IMG/VR virus record: IMGVR_UViG_3300024051_000014
Location: 1 to 24,442 of that record
DNA: 24,442 nucleotides
Direction: 5' to 3' (one strand)
From: a virus
Taxonomy: Duplodnaviria > Caudoviricetes
Numbering within the stretch: the first letter of the stretch is position 1; every line of letters begins with the position of its first letter. The notes below the pieces were generated by a model. That model saw only the letters and a program-made list of their open reading frames with translations. It was not told the origin of the DNA and searched no databases. The position numbers and the translations under genes were made by a program. Positions 5,188 through 23,878 of the stretch are shown here, piece after piece.

Positions 5188-5748
5188 TTACTTACCCTTG
5201 GCTGGTCGGGCCTTGGGCTGGGGAGCCGGAGGCGGTGTATCCGCCTCCGGTTCAATGGCCGGAACATCAGTCTCCGGCGCTGGTGCGTCATCACCGTCGG
5301 ACTTAGTGTCATCAGGTGTATGGCTTTCAGACGCGGGCATAATGACCCCTTCAGGCGAGGTTTCGGTCGGGGCCGGCGCACCTTCTGCGGCGGCCTCCGC
5401 GATGGGCTGAGTTTCTTCAAACACCTCGCTCGCTGGGGGTATATCGGGTTGATCGGCTTCAAACGCAGTAACGATTGCCCGCATCTGTACCTCACTGAAT
5501 GGCCCAGCCTCGATGTAAAGCTGCTGGGGCATGGCAGCCTCGATGTCATCGACTGACGGCGGCGGCCCCCACTCTTCGCCATTAAAAACCTGCCACGTCA
5601 GGACGGGGTCTTTAGCGATGACCAGGACGCGCTGCAGACCACCCGGACTGCACACCAGTTCGACCTCCTGCCACTGACGGGCAGCGGCAAAGACCAGACC
5701 GGCGCGGCGGTAAGGGACGCGGAGCGACTTGACGCGGATTTTAATCAT
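5188..5748 (-). CDS. Mu gp35/HI1506-like protein with acidic Pro-rich tail
   Basis: MIKIRVKSLRVPYRRAGLVF...DPVLT N-terminal motif, directly after the capsid gene; start is ATG 5748 or GTG 5754. Confidence 0.7.
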   Translation of the reverse strand: MIKIRVKSLRVPYRRAGLVFAAARQWQEVELVCSPGGLQRVLVIAKDPVLTWQVFNGEEWGPPPSVDDIEAAMPQQLYIEAGPFSEVQMRAIVTAFEADQPDIPPASEVFEETQPIAEAAAEGAPAPTETSPEGVIMPASESHTPDDTKSDGDDAPAPETDVPAIEPEADTPPPAPQPKARPAKGK

Positions 5749-5764
5749 GTCCACGGCGCGCCTC

Positions 5765-6679
5765 TTACGCCAGCTTCGGCGCAACGATGATTTTCACATC
5801 GTTGTAAAGCGTATTGCTATCGCCGCCGTTGACCAGTTGGGTTTCAAACAGGGCTTTGGCTGCGGCTTCGTTGGAGTTGCCAACGACAATATGCGTCGGG
5901 CGGATGGCCAGCGGTTCGCCCTGCTCGTCCTTCAGGCCCGTCATGGCCGCCTTGGCGGCTTCATAATTGGCCCGGTTGAGCGTGTTGGTCGAACGGTGCG
6001 CGAGTTGCGGCATGGTATAGCCACCGGCACCGCGCGCCTTACCGTGCAACGGCACCTTACCGTTATTCATTTCGATGACATCACGGTTAGTGCCCATCCA
6101 GAACGTCGGTGCCTGACGGTTCTGCAACAGGATTGGCTTCAGCGGCTGCGTCAGGTCGACCAGGAACCACGGGTCGACAGTCCCCGCCCCCGACGACATA
6201 TTGGAATAGATGCTTTCAACCAGCTTACCGTCACCGTCACGATAGTCATAAGGGTGATCGGTATCGAAGAAGTTCTGGCCGTCATAGCATTCGCGCAGGT
6301 GTCCATCGCGCAAAGCCGCAAAGATCAGATCATCAGGCAATTCGCCCGCCGACTTACCCCAGCTTTCGATCAGGGCGTTATAAGAGCCGAGATTATCATC
6401 CGACCAGTCGTCTTCGTCGATCTCGACTTCGCCGGTGAACTTATCGTTGGCCAGATGGTAAACTTTTTCAGCTACGGCCTGATAGCGGCGCTCACCCATC
6501 CATTTGCGGAGCTTGGGGAAGCGGCCAAACCAGCCATACTTGTTAGAACCTGAGGTGGATGGCACCGGTGTAGCCAGTTGCGCCCCCACCAACAGGGCAG
6601 ATTTCAGACCCTTGGTGAACAGGGCCGAGTAGGTAACGCGCTGTGCATCCAGCGAGGCTTGGGTCATTACGCCGTTCAT
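5765..6679 (-). CDS. Major capsid protein (Mu gpT-like)
   Basis: Start ATG 6679 with GAAGGA; VPSTSGSNKYGWFGRFPKLRKWMGER, CYDGQNFFDTDHP, WFLVDLTQPLKPILLQNR motifs. Confidence 0.96.
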   Translation of the reverse strand: MNGVMTQASLDAQRVTYSALFTKGLKSALLVGAQLATPVPSTSGSNKYGWFGRFPKLRKWMGERRYQAVAEKVYHLANDKFTGEVEIDEDDWSDDNLGSYNALIESWGKSAGELPDDLIFAALRDGHLRECYDGQNFFDTDHPYDYRDGDGKLVESIYSNMSSGAGTVDPWFLVDLTQPLKPILLQNRQAPTFWMGTNRDVIEMNNGKVPLHGKARGAGGYTMPQLAHRSTNTLNRANYEAAKAAMTGLKDEQGEPLAIRPTHIVVGNSNEAAAKALFETQLVNGGDSNTLYNDVKIIVAPKLA

Positions 6680-6701: not shown

Positions 6702-7154
6702 TTAGGCGTCGTGGCCGGGAGCGATCCACACACCGGCAGGGGTCACATCCTTGATGCGGCCAGCCTTGGGACGGGTGTTGGTGGCGTGGGTCTTGCCGAC
6801 CGTCTCGTCATCGATGACATAACAGTCGTTTTCGATATCAGCGGCGGTGATGGCATCGCCGGACGTACCGTTGCGCAGCAGGTACCAGCCCTCATGCTCA
6901 ATCTCGGCAATCACATCACCATTGGCGACGCCACCTTCGGCACTATGTTTGAAGATACCCACCACACGGCAGGTGGCGGCATCAGCGGCCTGAGCGGCCA
7001 TATCCGCCCCTTGTCCGGGGCGGGCGGCGCGGGCGAACCCTGAGGCCAGCATAGCCAGACCGCCCTGCCAGACCTTAACACCGGCAGCCAGCCCGACCTG
7101 GCGGGCCTTACCGTTACGGCGCTCCAGCGCCTTATTGGGGCCAGTCAGCGCCAT
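6702..7154 (-). CDS. Probable capsid decoration/cement protein
   Basis: 150 aa beta-rich (DAITAADIENDCYVIDDETV...RPKAGRIKDV...GVWI) between protease/scaffold and capsid, as in many Mu-like phages. Confidence 0.7.
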   Translation of the reverse strand: MALTGPNKALERRNGKARQVGLAAGVKVWQGGLAMLASGFARAARPGQGADMAAQAADAATCRVVGIFKHSAEGGVANGDVIAEIEHEGWYLLRNGTSGDAITAADIENDCYVIDDETVGKTHATNTRPKAGRIKDVTPAGVWIAPGHDA

Positions 7155-7702
7155 TATTTCGGTTCCTTCTCAAGGGCATCGCGCGCGGCGATGAATTCTT
7201 CTTCGGTCAGACCGGCACTGGCGGCAGCGGCCACCTCAACCTCAGTCAGACCATTGGCATTTTTCGCAGGCGCGTCGCCATCGAGGACGGCACCGGCAGA
7301 CACGACAACCTCTTTCTTGCCGACGAAAGAATTGAAGCGGTCAGGCTGGTGGCGGGCGAAGTCGAGCATTTCCCCACGCTGCGCAGGCGTAAACTTGCCT
7401 GCGGCGATGGCGGCATCGACCGACGCGGCGATATCCTTTTCGGCCAGATCGTCGACCTTCTTCTGAAGCGCATCATAGGCAGCGGCGGGGACGATAATCT
7501 CTCCCGCCTTCGCGACTTTCCTGTCCTTCAGGGTGGCCGAGGCCGTAACGATCTGTTCTTCGGTGGCCGTCTCATTCAGGCCGAGGGCGCTAACAGACGC
7601 TTTCAGGCGCGTCGTCAGTGAGGTAGCAGCCGCGACGACCTGTTCCTCGGTCGGGCTTTCACCCGTGAGGCCCAGCGCCGCCGCAATAGCGGTCAGTTTC
7701 AT
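7154..7702 (-). CDS. In-frame internal scaffold protein (Mu gpZ-like)
   Basis: AAGGA-7 nt-ATG (MKLTAIAAALGL...) right after the protease domain; Mu makes gpZ from an internal start in gene I. Confidence 0.7.
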   Translation of the reverse strand: MKLTAIAAALGLTGESPTEEQVVAAATSLTTRLKASVSALGLNETATEEQIVTASATLKDRKVAKAGEIIVPAAAYDALQKKVDDLAEKDIAASVDAAIAAGKFTPAQRGEMLDFARHQPDRFNSFVGKKEVVVSAGAVLDGDAPAKNANGLTEVEVAAAASAGLTEEEFIAARDALEKEPK

Positions 7703-8215
7703 GGGGGAGTCCTTGGTTTGCTGGCTGGCCGCAATGGCGGGCAGTCCGTCGATTGCAGGATTGTTGGTCAGGGCCGCATTGATCAGCCGTGTAACCAGTC
7801 CCGATTTTTCTTCCGCCCTGAACAGCGGGGAAATGTAACGATATTCACGGGCCAGAAGTCGCGCCGTTGCCGGAACCGTCCAGTCAACATCCGCCTTCAC
7901 ACCCTCATCATCAGCAAAGAGGCGGGTGACCCAGCCCGAAGCCGGACTCTCCTCACCCTTGGGGGCTTTGAAAAGGAGGCTATGCTCATAATCAAAGTGC
8001 AATTGCTGTTGACCAGCCAACTTCAGGCTGGCGGTAACAATCGCCTCGGCATGCGCACGATCCTTAACCGTGTACGGCCCGCGACCGTCGCGCAAAGTAA
8101 ATGTGCCGATCGGCAGAAGCAGAATGGTCTTTTTAACGCGGCCTTCGCCGTCCAGCACGTCAATCGCGCTGGCAAAAACATCTACTTCATGATTGCCCCC
8201 CTTGGCGGATGACAT
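7154..8215 (-). CDS. Prohead protease/scaffold (Mu gpI-like)
   Basis: Probable start ATG 8215 (GAGG SD); LLPIG.F..RDGRGP, FDYEH, PASGWV, REYRYISP, ALTNNPAI motifs. Confidence 0.93.
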   Translation of the reverse strand: MSSAKGGNHEVDVFASAIDVLDGEGRVKKTILLLPIGTFTLRDGRGPYTVKDRAHAEAIVTASLKLAGQQQLHFDYEHSLLFKAPKGEESPASGWVTRLFADDEGVKADVDWTVPATARLLAREYRYISPLFRAEEKSGLVTRLINAALTNNPAIDGLPAIAASQQTKDSPMKLTAIAAALGLTGESPTEEQVVAAATSLTTRLKASVSALGLNETATEEQIVTASATLKDRKVAKAGEIIVPAAAYDALQKKVDDLAEKDIAASVDAAIAAGKFTPAQRGEMLDFARHQPDRFNSFVGKKEVVVSAGAVLDGDAPAKNANGLTEVEVAAAASAGLTEEEFIAARDALEKEPK

Positions 8216-8265
8216 CTGAACCTCAAACGGATCAGGGGCCACGGCGGCCCCGACTTGTGAGGCTC

Positions 8266-8312
8266 AGATTAGAGAGGGGAGCGGGGACGCATCAGGGTGA
8301 AATATTTCACCC
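8266..8312 (-). promoter_or_regulatory. Late promoter (P-I-like): activator dyad plus -10
   Basis: Perfect 18-bp palindrome GGGTGAAATATTTCACCC (8295-8312), 23 nt spacer, TAATCT (8271-8266), upstream of gene I. Confidence 0.75.
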
Positions 8313-8322
8313 ATGCCTGAGA

Positions 8323-9981
8323 TCAGGGCCGCTCAGGCAGGGGCTGGATGTCATACGTCCAGTGGTCGCGGCTAAAATCCACAGTGATGCGGCGGTCGTC
8401 AAGCGTCTTTGTGTAACGCCGCACCAGCTGCTGGCGAGAATAGTTGCGCCACGCCTTGTTATCGCCGGTCAAATCGACTATCTTGGGCGGGAACCCGGCC
8501 TCGTTTCGGACGTTAGGCAGAGCGGCAGAGGCTACACTCTGAACATTCTGCAGGACGGGCTTTTTATAAAAGGTGTTGGACTCAAGGCCTTTTTCGCGGC
8601 GCTTGATATTGGTCACATAGACATATACCCCACTGGCCCGCCGAGCCACGAACACAACATCCAATTTTCCGAATATCACAGCATCCGGGGCCGCCACGAT
8701 ACCAGGCAGTTCGAGAAAATCCGTTCTGGACATGGCTATCTGCCCGCGCTGGGTTTCAGCAACTGAATCATAATGGTTGTTGCGCACATGACGCACCGCA
8801 TCGGCTGTCAGCTCATGCTCAAACCCGCTAAGATCAAGTCCATGTTTTCGGGCCAGTGTGACAAACGGCGCTGATACAGGGCCGGTAATAAATCGCTCCT
8901 TTTTCTCTCCGGACAATGCCGCATCCACGACCCTGTCAATAGCGACGGTTACCTCAGCCTCTGAACGCATATCCCGCGCCCAGACCCATTCGGCATGATC
9001 CGGTTTTTTGAGCGCCTGCGCCACCTCAGGCAGATCGTCGATCAGGTCAGGACGTGGCACAACCGCATAGCCCCTGGGGTCACGGAACAGGCCATCTGTC
9101 ACCGCCAGCGGCCAGCCGTCACGATCCTGTACGATCCGGCCCTGACCATCCGCGTCAAAGACGTTCAGGAACGCCGTCGATGCCGTCTTGGCTTCGGCGG
9201 CCGGAACCGAGGGCCGACCAGGACGCACCAGCGCGGGGGCCGGTGACAGGGGACGCAAAGGGGCCTTGCCGACATTATAATTAAAGCCGGGGTCTATGCC
9301 GCGCTCGATCTGCGTCACCTCGCCCGTGCGCGGATGGACATAGGTCACCGGCTCAAATTGCACCGGTTTGCTGATCTTCAGGCCGCGCGTCTCCATCATG
9401 CGACGCGTCAGGGATTGAGTGGCGCAACGGCAATTCCAGCCGCACGGCGGATAATGGGTATCCCACCACGGATCATCGACGGGCAAACAGGTGCCGTGCC
9501 ATTCCCGATGCTGAAGGCGCGTCCGGCCATCGCCCGACCGACCGCCGACCGCGATATACATCAGATACGGGAACGCCCGCTTTGAGCGTTCAATGCGCTG
9601 CCAGTTGCCATGCGCGCGGGCGGTGCGCACATTCATGTCAAAAATCGTGCGCAGGCGGCGGTCAGACCCCAGTTGCACCATCTTGGTCTCACCGGTCAGC
9701 GGGTCGGTCATTTCCTGACGCCCCCACCAGCCCGCCGCCTGAAGGTGCGGTTTCAGGCCCGCCTTGAATTGCTCAAAGGTCTGACCGTCCGCCAGTGCCT
9801 GATCAACGGCCTGACGTGTGATTTCCAGCAGCTCAAGATTGGCCATCTTGGCGACGGCGAAGGCCCTGGCATGTTCCTCTTGCCAGACGTCCTGCCACGC
9901 AAAAGACGGGGTCAGCCCCTTCGACCGGAAATAGGCGATGGCATCCCTGGGCGGCAATGGTGTCAATGACGGTTCAGCCAT
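8323..9981 (-). CDS. MuF (gpF) minor head protein with C-terminal PBECR-like putative nuclease domains
   Basis: The N-terminal ~240 aa carry HARAFAVAK, RLRTIFDMN, R..HREWHG, WWDTHYPPCGWNCRC, IDPGFNYNVG (MuF). The ~310-aa extension resembles PBECR2 and PBECR3 domains (recognised by eye). Confidence 0.9.
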   Translation of the reverse strand: MAEPSLTPLPPRDAIAYFRSKGLTPSFAWQDVWQEEHARAFAVAKMANLELLEITRQAVDQALADGQTFEQFKAGLKPHLQAAGWWGRQEMTDPLTGETKMVQLGSDRRLRTIFDMNVRTARAHGNWQRIERSKRAFPYLMYIAVGGRSGDGRTRLQHREWHGTCLPVDDPWWDTHYPPCGWNCRCATQSLTRRMMETRGLKISKPVQFEPVTYVHPRTGEVTQIERGIDPGFNYNVGKAPLRPLSPAPALVRPGRPSVPAAEAKTASTAFLNVFDADGQGRIVQDRDGWPLAVTDGLFRDPRGYAVVPRPDLIDDLPEVAQALKKPDHAEWVWARDMRSEAEVTVAIDRVVDAALSGEKKERFITGPVSAPFVTLARKHGLDLSGFEHELTADAVRHVRNNHYDSVAETQRGQIAMSRTDFLELPGIVAAPDAVIFGKLDVVFVARRASGVYVYVTNIKRREKGLESNTFYKKPVLQNVQSVASAALPNVRNEAGFPPKIVDLTGDNKAWRNYSRQQLVRRYTKTLDDRRITVDFSRDHWTYDIQPLPERP

Positions 9982-11679
9982 TTACCCCTGCCCGTCCGTT
10001 TCCCCCTCAAGCCGCGCCGCAAACAGGGTGCGCGCCAGCAGGCCGGTCAGTTTGGCCGGATCAGTATCGGCCAGAGCCGACAAACCGGCGATAATCTCAT
10101 CATAGCTATTGGCTGCCGCCACCATCTCCTCGATGTCGCCGATCAGCGGGGCCATGACCTCAGTCCACTCATTGGCCGCCGCATCCACCAGATCATCGAG
10201 CCGGTCTTTATCCTCGCCATGAGCGGTCGATTGGGCGGCCCCGACCGACAGCGCCGACGCCGCGACCGCTCCCTCAGGTTTTAAGACGCCTTTAAGACGG
10301 TTTAAGAAGGGTCTGTGTGCGTTTAAGGCGGCGGCGGGGATGTCTGAGCCGCCCGCCCCGTCATCCTCAGTCTGTGGCGCGGGATTCCGGGAGGCAGCAG
10401 ATCGGGGTCTAAGGAGGCGCACGGGCTTGCCGGTGTCCTTCCGGTCGGCCGGATCAGGCAGACCCAGTTTGTCACGCACGACTGACTCTTCGACCTCGCC
10501 ACCCAGATCGACAAAGCGCTCGATCTTCTCCATGTCTTCGACGCTGAAGAACTCGTCCTCACCGATATTGACCTCAGGATATTCGCCTGAAGGCGGCGGG
10601 CCGTGGTTGAAATCGACCATCCACTGCGCCATTTCGGTGAGGGTTTCAGCCAAGCCTTCGGCGTCAGCGCGTTTGATGTCCTGACGCACCTCATTGTGGA
10701 CGGCCCCGCTGGAGCCGAACCCGCCCGTCGTCGCATCCGTGGTGCCGGTCTGGCCCAGCACCGCTTTTGAAACCTGCTGATCGAGCATAGTGATCAGGTT
10801 GTGGAACACCTCGGCATTGCCGCTGACCAGACCGTTGACGAATTCGACTTCCATCGACTTCGGGATGATGCCCGCCGTGTCTGTGCCGATCCCCACGACT
10901 GCGCGCATCAGGGTGCGCCGGTCGTCTTCAGTGGCCGAGCTGTCATATTTACCAAGGCGCATGGGGATGCCGTAGATTTCGGCGAATATAACCCAGTCCT
11001 TGATGGCGAAGTTCTGGAACAACCACGCCCAGGCTACGCCCCGCGCCAGACCGCCACGGATCGGCAGGCCGGTTTTGGCCGTGTGACGGTGGATCAAAAA
11101 TTTATAGGGCGGCAAGTCGGTAGCCAGCCCCGCCGTGCCATCCGGCCCGCCCCTCAGGCGCAGGGTCTCAAGATCGTTCTGATCCAGCTCAAACCATTTC
11201 TGATTGCGGTTAACCAGACGCACCGGCAGCCATTGCTGGCCGGTCGCCCAGACCACCTCCTGAATGCTATAACCCTTACCAAGCGCATCCAGCATATCTT
11301 TGCGCGCGCGGCGGATGGCCGGACGGCGCAGCACCTTGCGCACGAGATCCGCGTCACCTTGCCCGCGCGCATCATCTGTGGCCGCCGCGACCGTGATCGG
11401 CAATTGCGCCACCGCCAGCTTGCGGGCGGATAAGACTCCCTGATAGTGCAGGTACTTCTCTTCGATCTCCTCAGCCAGATCGAAATAGGCGTCGGTATTA
11501 CCGGCCTCGGCATCGCGCATGATGCGCGCCAGCCGCATAGGATCGAGGCCCTGCGCCGGATGGCCGGACAGGACAGAGCGCACCCCACCCAATGTCGGGG
11601 CGGCAATCTCACGCGTCAGCAGCTCACGCTCAAACGGACGGCCATGCACGTCAAGGATGCTGGATTTTACCTTCACCAT
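9982..11679 (-). CDS. Portal protein (Mu gpH/gp29, DUF935)
   Basis: LARIMRDAEAG..AYFDLAEEIEEK, FAEIYGIPMRLGKY, SKAVLGQT.TT, VHNEVRQDI motifs. Confidence 0.96.
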   Translation of the reverse strand: MVKVKSSILDVHGRPFERELLTREIAAPTLGGVRSVLSGHPAQGLDPMRLARIMRDAEAGNTDAYFDLAEEIEEKYLHYQGVLSARKLAVAQLPITVAAATDDARGQGDADLVRKVLRRPAIRRARKDMLDALGKGYSIQEVVWATGQQWLPVRLVNRNQKWFELDQNDLETLRLRGGPDGTAGLATDLPPYKFLIHRHTAKTGLPIRGGLARGVAWAWLFQNFAIKDWVIFAEIYGIPMRLGKYDSSATEDDRRTLMRAVVGIGTDTAGIIPKSMEVEFVNGLVSGNAEVFHNLITMLDQQVSKAVLGQTGTTDATTGGFGSSGAVHNEVRQDIKRADAEGLAETLTEMAQWMVDFNHGPPPSGEYPEVNIGEDEFFSVEDMEKIERFVDLGGEVEESVVRDKLGLPDPADRKDTGKPVRLLRPRSAASRNPAPQTEDDGAGGSDIPAAALNAHRPFLNRLKGVLKPEGAVAASALSVGAAQSTAHGEDKDRLDDLVDAAANEWTEVMAPLIGDIEEMVAAANSYDEIIAGLSALADTDPAKLTGLLARTLFAARLEGETDGQG

Positions 11680-18306: not shown

Positions 18307-18624
18307 TCATGTCCTGACCACCTGTGGAGCCGAAGCCAGTTCGGCCTCAAGCTGGGCACGAAACTCTGGCGCCACCGCCACCCCCGCCGCCTTTAGGCGC
18401 GCGATCATGCCGTTAATGCGCGCCTCCCATGACGCGGCCAATGCACGATACGCCGCCTCTATCACCGACCACTCTTCTTGCGTGGTTTCAGGGGCTGGAG
18501 CGCTCAGGCGCGCGGCCACATCCCACAGGGTTTCGACCTCAAATTTCGACAGCACCTCAGGCATGGCCGCGTGATGTGTGGCCGTGAGACAGATGGTTTT
18601 GAGTTTTTCCTGACAAATCAGCAT
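18307..18624 (-). CDS. Hypothetical protein (105 aa)
   Basis: Start 18624 by TGATG coupling to the upstream gene; plausible helical protein; no family recognised. Confidence 0.7.
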   Translation of the reverse strand: MLICQEKLKTICLTATHHAAMPEVLSKFEVETLWDVAARLSAPAPETTQEEWSVIEAAYRALAASWEARINGMIARLKAAGVAVAPEFRAQLEAELASAPQVVRT

Positions 18625-18815
18625 CAGACATTTCCTCCGATGATCAAGCCGACCCAGATCAGCCCCACGACAGTAAGCGCAAGGCCAATCCACAGCAGAC
18701 GGCGCGGGCGGTTCGTGATTTCAAAAAGCGGATGACGGCGCACCGTGCGCGGGCCAAACCCGCGCAGGTGCATCCACAGGCCATAGACGGCCCAGGCTAA
18801 GCCGCGCCCCCTCAT
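18624..18815 (-). CDS. Small membrane protein (63 aa)
   Basis: Coupled at both ends (ATGA, TGATG); C-terminal TM LLWIGLALTVVGLIWVGLIIGG. Confidence 0.7.
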   Translation of the reverse strand: MRGRGLAWAVYGLWMHLRGFGPRTVRRHPLFEITNRPRRLLWIGLALTVVGLIWVGLIIGGNV

Positions 18816-19517: not shown

Positions 19518-19928
19518 TCAGGCTCCTACGTCTGGGGTTTGATTTTTGGGGGGATTGGGTAACTGGACGGGCCGGATCACGCCCAGCGTCAGGTAATCGA
19601 CGCTGTCACAGATCGCCACGGCCATCTGATCCACATGATCGGGCGGCAGCACATGCGCAGCCGCCAGCGCCAGCGTCTGAAGCGCCTTGCCAATCGCGGT
19701 GACCAGTACCTCGGCCTCCTCAGCGGTCAGTTTGTCCGAACCGATGGTACGCACACGGTTGACCACCTGCGCGTCCATATGCCGCTCAACGGCATCGAGC
19801 GCTGTGGCCGATCCGGCCAGCATCAGCTGCCATGTACGCAGTTGCAGAGGGGTGACCTCCTGTCCGCTCTGAATGGCTGCGTCGATCCACGCGGCGGTAC
19901 GCGCGACTTTTTCAGAAGGCCGGATCAT
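19518..19928 (-). CDS. Hypothetical protein
   Basis: Start 19928 by ATGA overlap with the ATPase stop; fills the operon gap. Confidence 0.7.
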   Translation of the reverse strand: MIRPSEKVARTAAWIDAAIQSGQEVTPLQLRTWQLMLAGSATALDAVERHMDAQVVNRVRTIGSDKLTAEEAEVLVTAIGKALQTLALAAAHVLPPDHVDQMAVAICDSVDYLTLGVIRPVQLPNPPKNQTPDVGA

Positions 19929-20899
19929 GCGACACCGCCTGACGACAGTTGCGCCCATGCATCCTTGACGTGCGACAGCGTGACCTCAGCCACCCCATCG
20001 ACATCACGAGCAATGACGTGCGCCAGCTCAAGCACCTTGGACATCGAGCGCAACGCCCCACCGCCCGGCTTCATGGCGATCTCTGTCGCCAAAGCCCGCT
20101 GCTTAGGGTCTTGGCAGCCCCATGCATCCAGCAACAGACTGACGTCCTCAGGCTCCGGCGAGAGAATAACCTGACGCATGGATACGCGGCTAAAACGCTG
20201 GGCGTAGTTTGCCGTCCGCGATCCTTCAATGTTGCGGGTGACCTCAAGGTTACCGGCGAAAACCATACCGACCTTGGTGTCATCATAGATCGACCGGAGT
20301 TCCTCAAGCGCCTTTTCCCCAAGGTGCTGCGCCTCGTCGAGGATCAGCACCGCATTGTCGCGCGACCTAAACTGACGACGTACCAACTCCGACAACTGAT
20401 AGGCCGAGCGTTTACCCGCTGGGACGTTAAACTCATCCAGAATGGCCAGCATGATGGCATTGAAGCTGGCGCGCGATGGAGCGGCCGTAACGCTCCAGAC
20501 ATTCGGATGCTCGCGCCGAAACGCGTCGATGGATTGGGTTTTGCCTACGCCGGGGTTGCCCATGATCGTACACAGGTTCCCGCGCCGCGCCCACGCCAGC
20601 GTTGCACGGATGCGCTGGGCCGTTTTCGTCTTCTGAAAGAATGGTGCCGCAATATCGTCACCGCCAAACAGATCGACGGCATCTTCAGACGTAAACCAGC
20701 GCTCGACCTCCGTGGCGACCGTCTGGTTATTGCCTGCATATTTACCTGTGGCAAAAGCCTGTAGCGTCGCGGTCGCTATACCGGTTTTCTTGTTGAGCTC
20801 AGCCCAACTGAGCTCCTTCGTTTCCTTGTAATCAAGAACCCGCTTGCGCAGGGCCTCCAGCTGATCATCGGTGAATTGTTTACGCGATTGCGTCATCAT
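19925..20899 (-). CDS. MuB-like transposition AAA+ ATPase with N-terminal HTH
   Basis: Walker A GNPGVGKT, Walker B VLILDEAQHL, LEELRSIYD, R-finger FSRV. Start 20899 has a GAGGA SD; an alternative ATG at 20992 overlaps the transposase stop. Confidence 0.94.
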   Translation of the reverse strand: MMTQSRKQFTDDQLEALRKRVLDYKETKELSWAELNKKTGIATATLQAFATGKYAGNNQTVATEVERWFTSEDAVDLFGGDDIAAPFFQKTKTAQRIRATLAWARRGNLCTIMGNPGVGKTQSIDAFRREHPNVWSVTAAPSRASFNAIMLAILDEFNVPAGKRSAYQLSELVRRQFRSRDNAVLILDEAQHLGEKALEELRSIYDDTKVGMVFAGNLEVTRNIEGSRTANYAQRFSRVSMRQVILSPEPEDVSLLLDAWGCQDPKQRALATEIAMKPGGGALRSMSKVLELAHVIARDVDGVAEVTLSHVKDAWAQLSSGGVA

Positions 20900-20988: not shown

Positions 20989-23052
20989 TCATTTACGCGC
21001 TGGCTGTTCTGGCTCTGTGTGCGGGTCGGCTAACCCACCATCTAAAATCGAAAATCGGGGCCGCTCCTGAGGCGTCAGGCGCTCAACAGCGGAGGTGAAC
21101 CGGTCAATGACCGGTGTCTGTTCGTTGACCGGCGCAGGCAGGGCCGCGACCGCTGCCCCACCATTACGGCGCGGACGAACAGGTCGAATGACCGCAGGCT
21201 GTGCAGGCTCCGGTACCGGCTGAGACGCGGGCTGCATGGCGGCCAGATCGGCGGCGCTGATAAGCCCCTGAAGCCGCGCCGCTTCACGTGTCGCTTTACG
21301 CAGATCGCCTTCCATCTTGGCACGCGCCTTAGCGCCAGCGACATCATAGAACCCGACAGCCGCTTGCACCTCTGCCTCGCAGATGTATTCACCCGTAGAT
21401 TTGTAAACATGGACGGATGACTGGAGGTCGTCTGGATCAAACCTGACGGTGACCATTTCACCGGCAACCTGATAAAGCGCCTGATGGTGAAAAGCGTTGC
21501 CATAGATCGACACCTCGCCGGTCTTGCGATTGGCGCGCACATTATCTGCCGTTAACAAAGCGAGGCGCATCTGCTCAGGGCTGGCCTTACCGATCGGATT
21601 GGCCTGCACACTCTCAAAGAAGATGCCGTCGAAAGAGCGCCCTTTGGCATTCTCTGTGCGGCGTCCCTCACGGGCGTTGTGGTCGGCAATTTGCTCGGCT
21701 ACCAAGGCCTCAAAATCAGCCAGATCAATGGCGCGGTTGCCATAGTCTTCCGGCTTTGCGTCGATATGATTGCCAGTATAGGCACCTGCACACGCTGGAT
21801 GACGACCGATGGCTTCTTCAAGGTCGCGGAAGGCACGTTCAATGGGTTTGGCCTGACCGTGATGTGGTTTGGCCCAATGTATCTGAATGCCAAAGGATGT
21901 CAGAAGCCCCCAGTTCTCATCCTCACGGATTTTGAAACGGAAGCGCGATTTCGCTCCGCCCGTTATCCATTTCGACGCAAAGGCGCGACCATTATCCAGT
22001 GTGCAGCGCTTCGGTATTCCCCAGTTTTTGAACAAATCGGCAAAGGCCAGTCGGGTCAGGATCGCAGACTCAGTCTGACCCGTGCGCCACGCCAGTATCT
22101 TATTGGAATACAGGTCTTGAATAACGACCGAAATCGGGCGCGCAATGCGTTCGGGCTGACCGTCTTTGGCGGGGAAGCGCACGAACACATCCCACTTGTG
22201 ACCGTCGATATTGACGGCCTCAAGGGCATGAAGATTAGCGCGTGTCCGGCGCTGCGCAGGGATCATCTGAATGACTGCATCCATGCCATCGCGCTTGAGC
22301 TTTATGACCTCAGCTGGCACCTCGGCCTCAAGACGGCGCTGGAGCGTCTTAACGGGCGGCAGAGTAATGCCACGTACCTTGGCGATCTTGAGAGTGCGCC
22401 GGTAACATTCCGAATAGGACGGGCCAGATGGGCGAAGAAAATCCGACTTGAAGATGGTGAAAAGTTCGTCGTCCACCTCAACCCGAACCCCGCCGCCCTT
22501 CCGGCGTGGCGCGAGCGCAGGCAGCCTGTCCGCCACCGCCACACCAGCCAGCAGCTTGAGCCAGTTCCAGATTGTCGCCGCTGAAACACCATGCTGTGCC
22601 GCTGCACGGGCCACCGCCGCATTGGCCTTGAGGCCCGCCAGCTTGGCAGCATCCACCGCCTGAACGATCATCAACCGGCGCTGAGCCTCTGCCTTTACCT
22701 TAGCGGTCTGGGCCTCAAACCACCCCCAAGTCCCCTCGCCGCGCTCTGGCGACGGGGTTTCTGTGACTTCGGTAACCGACACATAAGACGGCTCCAAGAG
22801 GCCTCTTTTGACCAGCTCAAGCACCGCTGAAGGCGGCAACAGACTGGCATGATACTCAGACCCGCCGCCGCGACCGGCGCGGGGTCGGGACAAAGGTTCA
22901 CCGGCTGCATTGTGTTGTTCGCCCCAGCGCTGATCGCGCGCCATGTGCGCGATGCGCGACCGCTCCGCGGGTAAGCCGGGCAAAGCCAGATCGGCCAGAT
23001 CGGCGGGCGAATACCAGTGTTTGAGCATTGGCGCGGAATCAAAACCCATCAC
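20989..23052 (-). CDS. MuA-like DDE transposase
   Basis: N-terminal Mu-type HTH (WYSPADLADLALPGLP...GRGGGSEYHASLLP), catalytic NIDGH / LDNG / KPIERAF, C-terminal VTVRFDPDDL..VHVY domain. Confidence 0.96.
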   Translation of the reverse strand: MMGFDSAPMLKHWYSPADLADLALPGLPAERSRIAHMARDQRWGEQHNAAGEPLSRPRAGRGGGSEYHASLLPPSAVLELVKRGLLEPSYVSVTEVTETPSPERGEGTWGWFEAQTAKVKAEAQRRLMIVQAVDAAKLAGLKANAAVARAAAQHGVSAATIWNWLKLLAGVAVADRLPALAPRRKGGGVRVEVDDELFTIFKSDFLRPSGPSYSECYRRTLKIAKVRGITLPPVKTLQRRLEAEVPAEVIKLKRDGMDAVIQMIPAQRRTRANLHALEAVNIDGHKWDVFVRFPAKDGQPERIARPISVVIQDLYSNKILAWRTGQTESAILTRLAFADLFKNWGIPKRCTLDNGRAFASKWITGGAKSRFRFKIREDENWGLLTSFGIQIHWAKPHHGQAKPIERAFRDLEEAIGRHPACAGAYTGNHIDAKPEDYGNRAIDLADFEALVAEQIADHNAREGRRTENAKGRSFDGIFFESVQANPIGKASPEQMRLALLTADNVRANRKTGEVSIYGNAFHHQALYQVAGEMVTVRFDPDDLQSSVHVYKSTGEYICEAEVQAAVGFYDVAGAKARAKMEGDLRKATREAARLQGLISAADLAAMQPASQPVPEPAQPAVIRPVRPRRNGGAAVAALPAPVNEQTPVIDRFTSAVERLTPQERPRFSILDGGLADPHTEPEQPARK

Positions 23053-23297
23053 ACGCGCTCCTCAAACAGAGGCAGCGACGCAGGGGCAACACGATACCGG
23101 CGCGGCTTCAGGCCATGCTGAACCAGATACGCCGTCTTGGCCTGCGCCCAGACCTTCTTACCCCATGATGTCCCCTGATGCGCATACCAGGCCTGCGCAT
23201 TTAGCGCCCTGATGCGCGCCTTTAGAGGGGCATCGGCTGACAAGGTGCGATCCACCTCGACGATGATCTCATATGCGCGTTGCCTCCAGACACTCAT
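23049..23297 (-). CDS. Hypothetical protein (82 aa)
   Basis: Coupled at both ends (ATGA, GTGA); basic, Trp-rich; no function recognised. Confidence 0.75.
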   Translation of the reverse strand: MSVWRQRAYEIIVEVDRTLSADAPLKARIRALNAQAWYAHQGTSWGKKVWAQAKTAYLVQHGLKPRRYRVAPASLPLFEERV

Positions 23298-23878
23298 GAG
23301 GGCACCACCATTTCGCGGATGGCCCGCACACCGGCGACATTGAGCCAGTCTTTTGGCTCTTGGCGCGCATTGATGATGCTATGGATGCCCGTATCGCTAC
23401 AACCGCGACCAGCCAGATCGCGCACCAACTCCGCCAGAGGCGTTAAAGTCACCGCTCTAACACCCTCATTTGATTTATCAAGGGAGGTGGCGGGCGCAGT
23501 CCCGCCTGAGGGGGCGTTTTCCGCCTGCGCAAGATCGAGTCGGCATTCGACCAAATCAGATTCTGCGGCCTCTGCCCTCGCCGTGAGGATTTCATTACCC
23601 TCACGCAGTCGATCATTATCCGCCTCAAGCTCCCGGAGACGGTCATTAAGCGACATAACCTCAGCCGCCAGCCAATCCCGTGCCTCGTCGGCGTCCTCCA
23701 GCTCGGCCCCAAGTAATGCGACCGTCATTCTCGCCACATCAAGGCCGCTCTGAAGCTCGTCCAGTTGCGCCTGATCGACCTCTTTTGAGACAGCGACCGC
23801 AGCCTTGATCTGCGTCAGCAGGTCAACGACCTGCCCGTGGCGCAAAGTAGCTGTCTGTGCATCTTTACGCGCTCTCAT
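23294..23878 (-). CDS. Hypothetical coiled-coil protein (194 aa)
   Basis: Acidic heptad-rich middle (LNDRLRELEADNDRLREGNEIL); ATGA overlaps at both ends. Confidence 0.75.
   Translation of the reverse strand: MRARKDAQTATLRHGQVVDLLTQIKAAVAVSKEVDQAQLDELQSGLDVARMTVALLGAELEDADEARDWLAAEVMSLNDRLRELEADNDRLREGNEILTARAEAAESDLVECRLDLAQAENAPSGGTAPATSLDKSNEGVRAVTLTPLAELVRDLAGRGCSDTGIHSIINARQEPKDWLNVAGVRAIREMVVPS

Follow-up and report, generated by a model that had tools for sequence, protein, structure and literature searches.

The window, by which we mean the whole 24,442-nt stretch of viral DNA analysed here, derives from a Mu-like transposable myophage with genes for a Mu-type transposase, transposition protein, late activator, major head protein and sheath, and Pfam families for the portal, I protease, gp36 and terminase were recognised within it. 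A 552-aa open reading frame on the minus strand (9981..8323; protein P0001) encodes a minor head protein of the MuF type (Mu gpF/SPP1 gp7-like; PF04233, PHROG 220, TIGR01641). Its Phage_Mu_F domain occupies residues 56–188 (9418..9816, minus strand; Pfam E = 4e-17, 63.4 bits against a cut-off of 29.6), the TIGR01641 match scores 40.6 bits against a cut-off of 39.65, and the conserved MuF core reaches about residue 240. Directly upstream lies a Mu-type portal gene (9982..11679, minus strand; Portal_Mu, E = 4e-93), and directly downstream a Mu-like I protease gene (7154..8242, minus strand; Mu-like_Pro, E = 5e-62), which places the gene in the packaging module next to the portal, as for other members of the MuF family. 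The motifs quoted in an earlier sequence-only reading of this DNA all fall within this one reading frame.

The gap between the MuF and protease genes measures 80 bp (8243..8322), too small for an immunity gene. In none of seven loci with the nested architecture described below does any free-standing ORF, such as a small putative immunity ORF, precede the protease-like gene (gap of 57–102 bp), and the MuF gene of locus L246 likewise leads straight into a protease-like gene. Positions 8150–9100 contain no match to a sigma-70 promoter or a terminator; a 12-nt inverted repeat (92% complementary; 8310–8343) spans the MuF stop codon and was not called a terminator. Elsewhere in the window, a 198-aa ORF with an acidic, proline-rich tail (5188–5784, minus strand) lies between the major head and gp36-like genes without a PHROG match, and four early-region ORFs (23297–23878, 23052–23297, 19521–19958 and 18310–18693, minus strand) also have no PHROG match at E = 0.001. 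Those nested records that bear names belong to Asticcacaulis or Caulobacteraceae. In the genus of genome G001 (Asticcacaulis sp. YBE204), 5 of 44 genomes gave a match, four of them to the protein end and one only to residue 339.

Behind the MuF core, the Pfam PBECR2 model aligned only in part to P0001 (model positions 1–68 of 120 at residues 270–341; 19.6–22.3 bits, below the cut-off of 27.1), and the C-terminal flank searched alone had no Pfam match. We built a host-domain profile from 48 insert-free relatives picked by motif spacing, with no nested protein among them. This profile matched the two flanks of P0001 as complementary, non-overlapping halves: positions 5–81 at residues 263–338 (N-half, with EWVWAR as its last strand; 8968..9195, minus strand; 68.6 bits) and positions 83–114 at residues 515–546 (C-half, LVRRY...VDF...WTYD; 8344..8439, minus strand; 21.8 bits). 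The C-half score fell to 16.6 bits after dropping the closest relatives, against a maximum of 6.6 bits in 1000 shuffles of residues 345–552, and the same two-match pattern was seen in all 14 nested proteins tested. Because the profile matches end at residue 338 and resume at 515, we take the insert to be residues 339–514 (8440..8967, minus strand), a 176-aa module (GC 0.54, GC3 0.57) in place of a short hairpin turn. The insertion proposed earlier, at about 8460–8970, is thus present with refined bounds, and its suggested resemblance to PBECR3 is borne out by a PF18812 match above the cut-off over the core (residues 376–474; 8560..8856, minus strand; E = 1.9e-9, 37.9 bits against 30).

Across 449 distinct proteins, the N-half of the host domain was present in 186, comprising 161 intact, 23 split and 2 truncated forms; the intact forms divide into 110 plain proteins, 33 with a tandem PBECR3-like domain and 18 with another tail. 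Relatives without the insert, for which the sequence-only reading had asked, therefore exist in number, and in P0025, P0037 and P0045 both host-domain flanks are joined through a short turn. The spacing between the GWP and RRY motifs is 52–62 residues in insert-free proteins and 223–248 in nested ones (232 in P0001). PBECR3 was assigned in 23/23 split proteins (22 typed by script and P0158 by Pfam), among which L081 and L108 are near-copies. The PF18812 cut-off was exceeded by 10 of 11 nested relatives in one set (P0011 reached 25.5 bits) and by both in another, with the window insert scoring 37.9–41.6 bits. The insert of P0011/L246, which falls below the cut-off, is without the E.RGQ segment and has the longest branch, with both histidines retained. 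The insert is free of indels in the contigs of sequencing run X1, which are not independent of the window; a minor contig of that run (depth of about 3) carries four differences in the host N-half (9040–9097) and is either a strain variant or an error.

On these comparisons of sequence, we regard it as almost certain that in the tail of P0001 a PBECR3 domain interrupts a PBECR2-like domain in frame. An intein was rejected, with no Hint match and variable junction residues across the 23 proteins, as was a mobile element, with no repeat pair at the insert junctions. Tandem duplication to PBECR2-PBECR3-PBECR2 followed by two deletions would yield an identical architecture, and no such intermediate was found among the 186 proteins. 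The effector swapping that had been proposed for the insertion site did not hold up: no other domain type occurs there among the 23 split proteins, so the site is not a swap hot spot, and it is the whole C-terminal cassette that was likely swapped instead.

The host domain is best called PBECR2-like. PF18810 matched the insert-free P0025 (28.1 bits) and P0037 (28.4 bits) narrowly above its threshold (model positions 1–91), and did not match P0045. By a motif list read from our own alignment rather than from a curated list of active-site residues, the host domain is without the K..K.R.R cluster, the threonine of W.G.T, and the final helix and RG.L.Y strand of full PBECR2 members. The insert-free close relatives are without the same cluster, threonine, and last helix and strand; the loss is therefore likely to be older than the insertion, and the active site of the host domain was probably gone when the insert arrived. 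There is no conserved histidine at residues 296–324, though R310 is retained in 24/34 proteins, so that the host domain is called no more than likely to be catalytically inactive. At the same time, identity in its C-half amounts to 60% across nested proteins and 57% across empty ones, and R521, R522, D528, D535, F536, W541 and T542 are invariant in 23/23. The earlier description of an older, possibly degenerate effector was right in so far as the domain looks catalytically degenerate. The domain is not decaying, however: conservation in its C-half equals that in the MuF core.

An AlphaFold2 model of residues 256–552 of P0001 (pLDDT 92.6, pTM 0.78) is consistent with the nested architecture. 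The host-domain elements of the nested model correspond one for one to those of a model of intact P0025, with strand lengths of 8, 11, 7 and 7, and the insert takes the place of the turn that joins the first of these strands to the second. Together with the complementary profile matches, the agreement of the two models upholds the proposal that the flanks are halves of a single PBECR2-like domain; they likely form one domain in the model, although the folding alignment included insert-free rows and therefore favours reassembly of the split domain. Some outside PBECR3 domains were misaligned at the first helix in that alignment. Judged by first and last aligned residues, 11 PDB chains cover both flanks in the nested model, and every one of them also ranks among the top 50 matches of the intact model; 6d7y aligned over 68 residues at Z 3.3 against nested and intact models alike. 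For the insert, BECR-type RNase toxins top the list at low Z, with BrnT at 5.1 (rmsd 3.0, 75 residues aligned), CdiA-CT at 4.4, RelE at 4.1, colicin D at 3.5, and colicin E5 also present; all are under Z 8 and hence weak on their own. Foldseek found no match in the PDB at E = 0.001, its list being filled by PCNA, while BFVD returned seven matches at this threshold, mostly large phage proteins and given without alignments. A profile search of the sequences of solved structures gave one chance 21-residue match to colicin E5, located in the MuF core (E = 0.4). Atlas feature scores, which serve as leads only, were 0.80 or less, and the structure rows were PBECR3 and MuF_C with a TM by query below 0.5.

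Predicted active-site residues of the insert follow the PBECR layout of a histidine on a helix and a serine or threonine on the last strand. H398 and H403, either of which could be the catalytic histidine, lie on the first core helix (8773..8790, minus strand; model helix 393–403), and T470 and K473 on the last core strand (8563..8574, minus strand; T470 in model strand 465–474). Among nested proteins, H398, H403 and K/R473 are each present in 23/23 and T/S470 in 22/23; across 148 PBECR3 domains from outside the nested set, the two histidines are found in 145 and 147, and the serine or threonine in 140. The nested clade is reasonably likely to be active as an RNase, and for the P0001 copy itself we consider the chances evenly balanced.

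The doubt about this copy arises from changes of its own. A 6-aa in-frame deletion in a strand–strand loop of the insert (8656..8664, minus strand) occurs in P0001 only among 23 nested proteins, in columns filled in 93–100% of the 148 outside domains, and four substitutions (D392T, G404Y, E458N and R460K) fall at positions that are 79–89% conserved in outside domains. The insert also has a GC3 of 0.57 compared with 0.72 for the rest of the MuF gene (p = 5e-4), with fourfold sites showing the same signal (63/98 against 167/212, p = 0.008), and elsewhere in the clade a loop in the insert-free protein P0165, described below, resembles nested linkers as a deletion scar would. These observations would fit a nested architecture that is functional in the clade with a PBECR3 domain in P0001 that is decaying or inactive, the protein now being a minor head protein only. 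Nevertheless, the frame of the insert is intact, H389, H398, H403, E409, R412, Q414, D421, T470 and K473 are all retained, the AlphaFold2 model is confident across the shortened loop, and in 6 of 7 relatives with DNA the insert is likewise the part with lower GC3 (significantly in two), so that the compositional trend is not peculiar to this copy. We therefore consider decay of the P0001 insert unlikely.

An enzymatic role for the insert would involve delivery in the virion. The MuF core would carry its two-domain tail into the particle in few copies, linked to the portal, by analogy with SPP1 gp7, which the portal targets to the procapsid in few copies and which supports the start of infection (PMC6316719; PMC5576092), and the protein would then enter a new cell together with the phage DNA. 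On the strength of this analogy, we lean towards virion delivery of the MuF protein; entry of MuF toxins into cells is itself put forward as a hypothesis (PMC5576092). The split PBECR2-like domain would refold around the insert as an inactive stand, and the PBECR3 insert would act as a metal-independent RNase with a small range of host RNA targets, cut at an early stage of infection. For PBECR families, a His plus Ser/Thr site, metal-independent RNase activity and a packaging idea have been predicted or proposed, with defence RNA or mRNA suggested as a target (PMC5512222). Here, the target might be a specific tRNA, or a defence RNA or mRNA, with the host slowed briefly and not killed. CRISPR RNA was considered in this respect, and Cas1 matches were found in 8 of 44 genomes of the above genus and in 1 of 5 carriers. 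A low-dose, narrow-target enzyme is favoured because a temperate phage without an immunity gene must spare its new host. As a whole, a virion-delivered, low-dose, narrow-target RNase seated in an inactive split domain is the best explanation, to which we give about an even chance. We found no assay of PBECR activity in the literature searched.

Both domains could alternatively be non-catalytic binders of nucleic acid, which chaperone the DNA end at ejection or bind RNA and so broaden the DNA-binding function of gp7-type proteins. RNA binding has been proposed for the inactive PBECR of Mu gp30 (Iyer et al., PMC5512222), SPP1 gp7 is reported to bind DNA and to aid the start of infection (PMC6316719), and a binder would be in line with the lack of an immunity ORF at nested loci. 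However, the two histidines, the Thr/Ser and the Lys/Arg are near-invariant despite a mean identity of 33% in the insert, which is the most divergent part of the nested proteins (the MuF core averages 58%), and this is the pattern of an active site; we consider the binder reading distinctly unlikely. A further possibility keeps the nested RNase alive and makes the dead shell its control, holding or masking it in the producer and the virion, presenting RNA after ejection and replacing an immunity protein, with a long-lived armed/unarmed polymorphism. What speaks for it is that the shell is conserved, that an immunity gene is missing and that the two-domain model has a pTM of 0.78; we regard it as distinctly unlikely. 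The insert might also be a polymorphic toxin of the MuF type with broad toxicity, a tRNase or rRNase that stalls competitor cells, with immunity provided elsewhere or unneeded. Characterised colicin-like BECR members, among which PBECRs have been placed, mostly cut tRNAs (bioRxiv 10.64898/2026.08.28.747851), chains of colicin D, colicin E5 and CdiA-CT turn up with weak scores in the fold search of the insert, and cassette exchange is typical of polymorphic toxins; a broad toxin nonetheless appears quite improbable to us, for a temperate phage of this kind would have to spare its host, and a narrow-target RNase remains our preferred reading.

The composition of the insert might be taken as the mark of a fresh effector swap. 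The GC contents counted by hand (53, 68 and 58%) agree with the computed values of 0.526 for 8521–8940, 0.683 for 9061–9240 and 0.583 for 8341–8460, in a window with an overall GC of 0.604, and insert GC was the lowest when set against 217 overlapping 176-codon windows from 16 other phage genes. A fresh swap is nevertheless not supported, as the insertion is common to 23/23 split proteins with inserts only 33% identical on average. Relatives of the insert include PBECR3 domains of giant phage proteins (2000–4000 aa), and those giant proteins that were scanned carry LPD, ART-PolyVal or RadC domains. Outside PBECR3 domains match almost the whole insert (median profile positions 6–172 of 184), and the piece that moved therefore extends beyond the Pfam core.

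A tree was built from 22 nested inserts, without L108, together with 42 of the outside domains; its bootstrap had not yet converged. All nested inserts but one (21 of 22) formed a single clade (94/91, short of starred support) among PBECR3 domains of polyvalent proteins, and the insert of P0155 grouped with two outside domains (87/83). A single clade for all 22 was not rejected (p = 0.175). These relationships make a single old insertion probable, with a second one possible. The P0001 insert is sister to that of P0159 (96/87), and P0159 is likewise the row with the shortest path to P0001 in the trees of the host domain and of the core. Taking the tree and the GC signal together, low insert GC agrees better with rapid evolution of the insert or weak selection on its codons than with a fresh import; an unsampled lower-GC member of the nested clade may have supplied a replacement for the P0001 insert. 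Recent import of lower-GC DNA, as one of several effectors swapped into the site, could account for the extreme GC and for the highest identity of the P0001 insert in the tree alignment being to an outside domain (38%), but is very improbable given that placement with the most similar outside domains was rejected (p-AU = 0.006), that P0159 is its sister and that the same domain type fills all 23 split proteins.

Insert-bearing (armed) and insert-free (empty) forms are intermixed with respect to the MuF core. In the MuF-core tree, empty forms fall inside the nested group (P0037 with P0007, 100/100 and 82% identity; P0045 with P0011, 100/98), and monophyly of nested forms was rejected (p = 1e-4). 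With more rows, the armed/empty state requires at least seven changes on starred branches, and it clusters on this tree no more than shuffled labels do (74 and 168 of 500). On the host-domain tree, which is poorly resolved, the state is clustered (0/500 shuffles); pairing of the P0037 and P0007 host domains was rejected (p = 0.032), and that of P0045 and P0011 was not (p = 0.082). Whole C-terminal cassettes, armed and empty, have thus likely been exchanged among MuF cores, because most empty forms keep an ancestral turn length that deletion would not restore. Deletion as the origin of all empty alleles was rejected, with a W-to-RRY distance of 12 in 6 of 8 listed close relatives and in 120 of 157 intact proteins. 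Individual deletions are another matter. The 27-residue loop of P0165 is the best match to nested linkers among 157 intact proteins (27.4 against a mean of 15.4, SD 2.4), and the insert-free P0166 has a 31-residue loop at the insertion site with a weaker match; both long loops are probably deletion scars, and at least one copy likely lost its insert in this way. The insert is dispensable, because insert-free cassettes persist (11 close relatives).

Other tails were seen on the same scaffold. Locus L026 (2986–4716) encodes an ADP-ribosyltransferase domain behind an intact host domain (Pfam E = 2e-18), another re-arming of the scaffold, and by eye the tails of L109 (3001–4698) and L181 (1382–3109) look like it, while the tail behind the intact host domain of L091 (2971–4557) resembles a piece of Mu I protease. 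A weak search for longer fused host domains yielded P0153 alone (963 aa), a portal–MuF fusion by Pfam. Among GenBank phages, no record covered 80% of the C-terminal region and five gave partial matches. Four Burkholderia phages (H1–H4) have a PBECR3-like match, and in two of them the overlapping gene is annotated as a portal protein.

We propose the following history. A MuF-fused PBECR2 domain would have lost its basic cluster, terminal threonine and last helix–strand; a PBECR3 module from a giant polyvalent phage protein would then have been inserted at the hairpin turn, probably in a single event, giving the MuF protein a new effector; later, armed and insert-free C-terminal cassettes would have been exchanged, with at least one deletion of the insert. 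Insertion into a dead effector would thus be a route of effector renewal, one that end-to-end domain annotation misses: Pfam sees MuF and PBECR3 in the nested proteins and, of PBECR2, one half or nothing. Insertion of one domain into another is in itself commonplace in evolution. In prophages of named Asticcacaulis strains, nearly identical MuF cores occur with and without the insert; this natural experiment would allow a direct test of the role of likely virion-delivered enzymes.

Fusions of MuF with PBECR domains, inactive PBECRs on MuF proteins and cassette exchange are already known. The MuF-PBECR fusions of PMC5512222 (PF18810, PF18812 and MuF_C, PF18819) resemble P0001 in having a MuF core encoded between portal and head genes and C-terminal BECR-fold domains, and that source puts the share of phage polyvalent proteins with a PBECR domain at up to 26%. 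Mu gp30, described there, carries an inactive PBECR on a MuF protein, like the presumed inactive host domain here. Those proteins are presented as fusions, duplications and rearrangements, whereas in P0001 a PBECR sits within a second PBECR. Neither "inserted" nor "insertion" is used in the main text of PMC5512222, the accessible part of PMC10684548 contains nothing on a nested PBECR, and none was found in the literature searched; the supplementary architecture lists of PMC5512222 may contain such proteins. SPP1 gp7 shares the Phage_Mu_F/TIGR01641 core and adjoins the portal gene; unlike P0001, it has no toxin domain according to PMC5576092.

The MuF polymorphic toxins (Jamet et al. 2017, PMC5576092) are alike in belonging to temperate tailed phages and a packaging module, and in having a variable C-terminus swapped on conserved N-terminal cores. 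A downstream ORF is present in 89.4% of MuF toxin genes; the nested clade differs in being without an immunity ORF, in having its effector internal rather than terminal, and in showing only two cassette states. Colicin D, colicin E5 and CdiA-CT share with the insert a helix-plus-sheet core with His and Ser/Thr, at Z 3.2–4.4 and an identity below 15%. Colicin-like BECR tRNases use other delivery routes and have paired immunity proteins, and several PDB titles among the colicin-like matches read toxin–immunity complex. Also close to the nested proteins are the tandem MuF-PBECR2-PBECR3-like proteins (33 of the 161 intact forms, including L009, L015, L016, L027 and L029, many of them in sphingomonad records), which have both domain types on the same scaffold. 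There the PBECR3-like domain follows a host domain that is intact, and it forms a distant lineage in the insert tree; it is therefore an independent re-arming. Set against these systems, the nested MuF protein is an unusual architecture within a known family, well supported as a history read from sequence.
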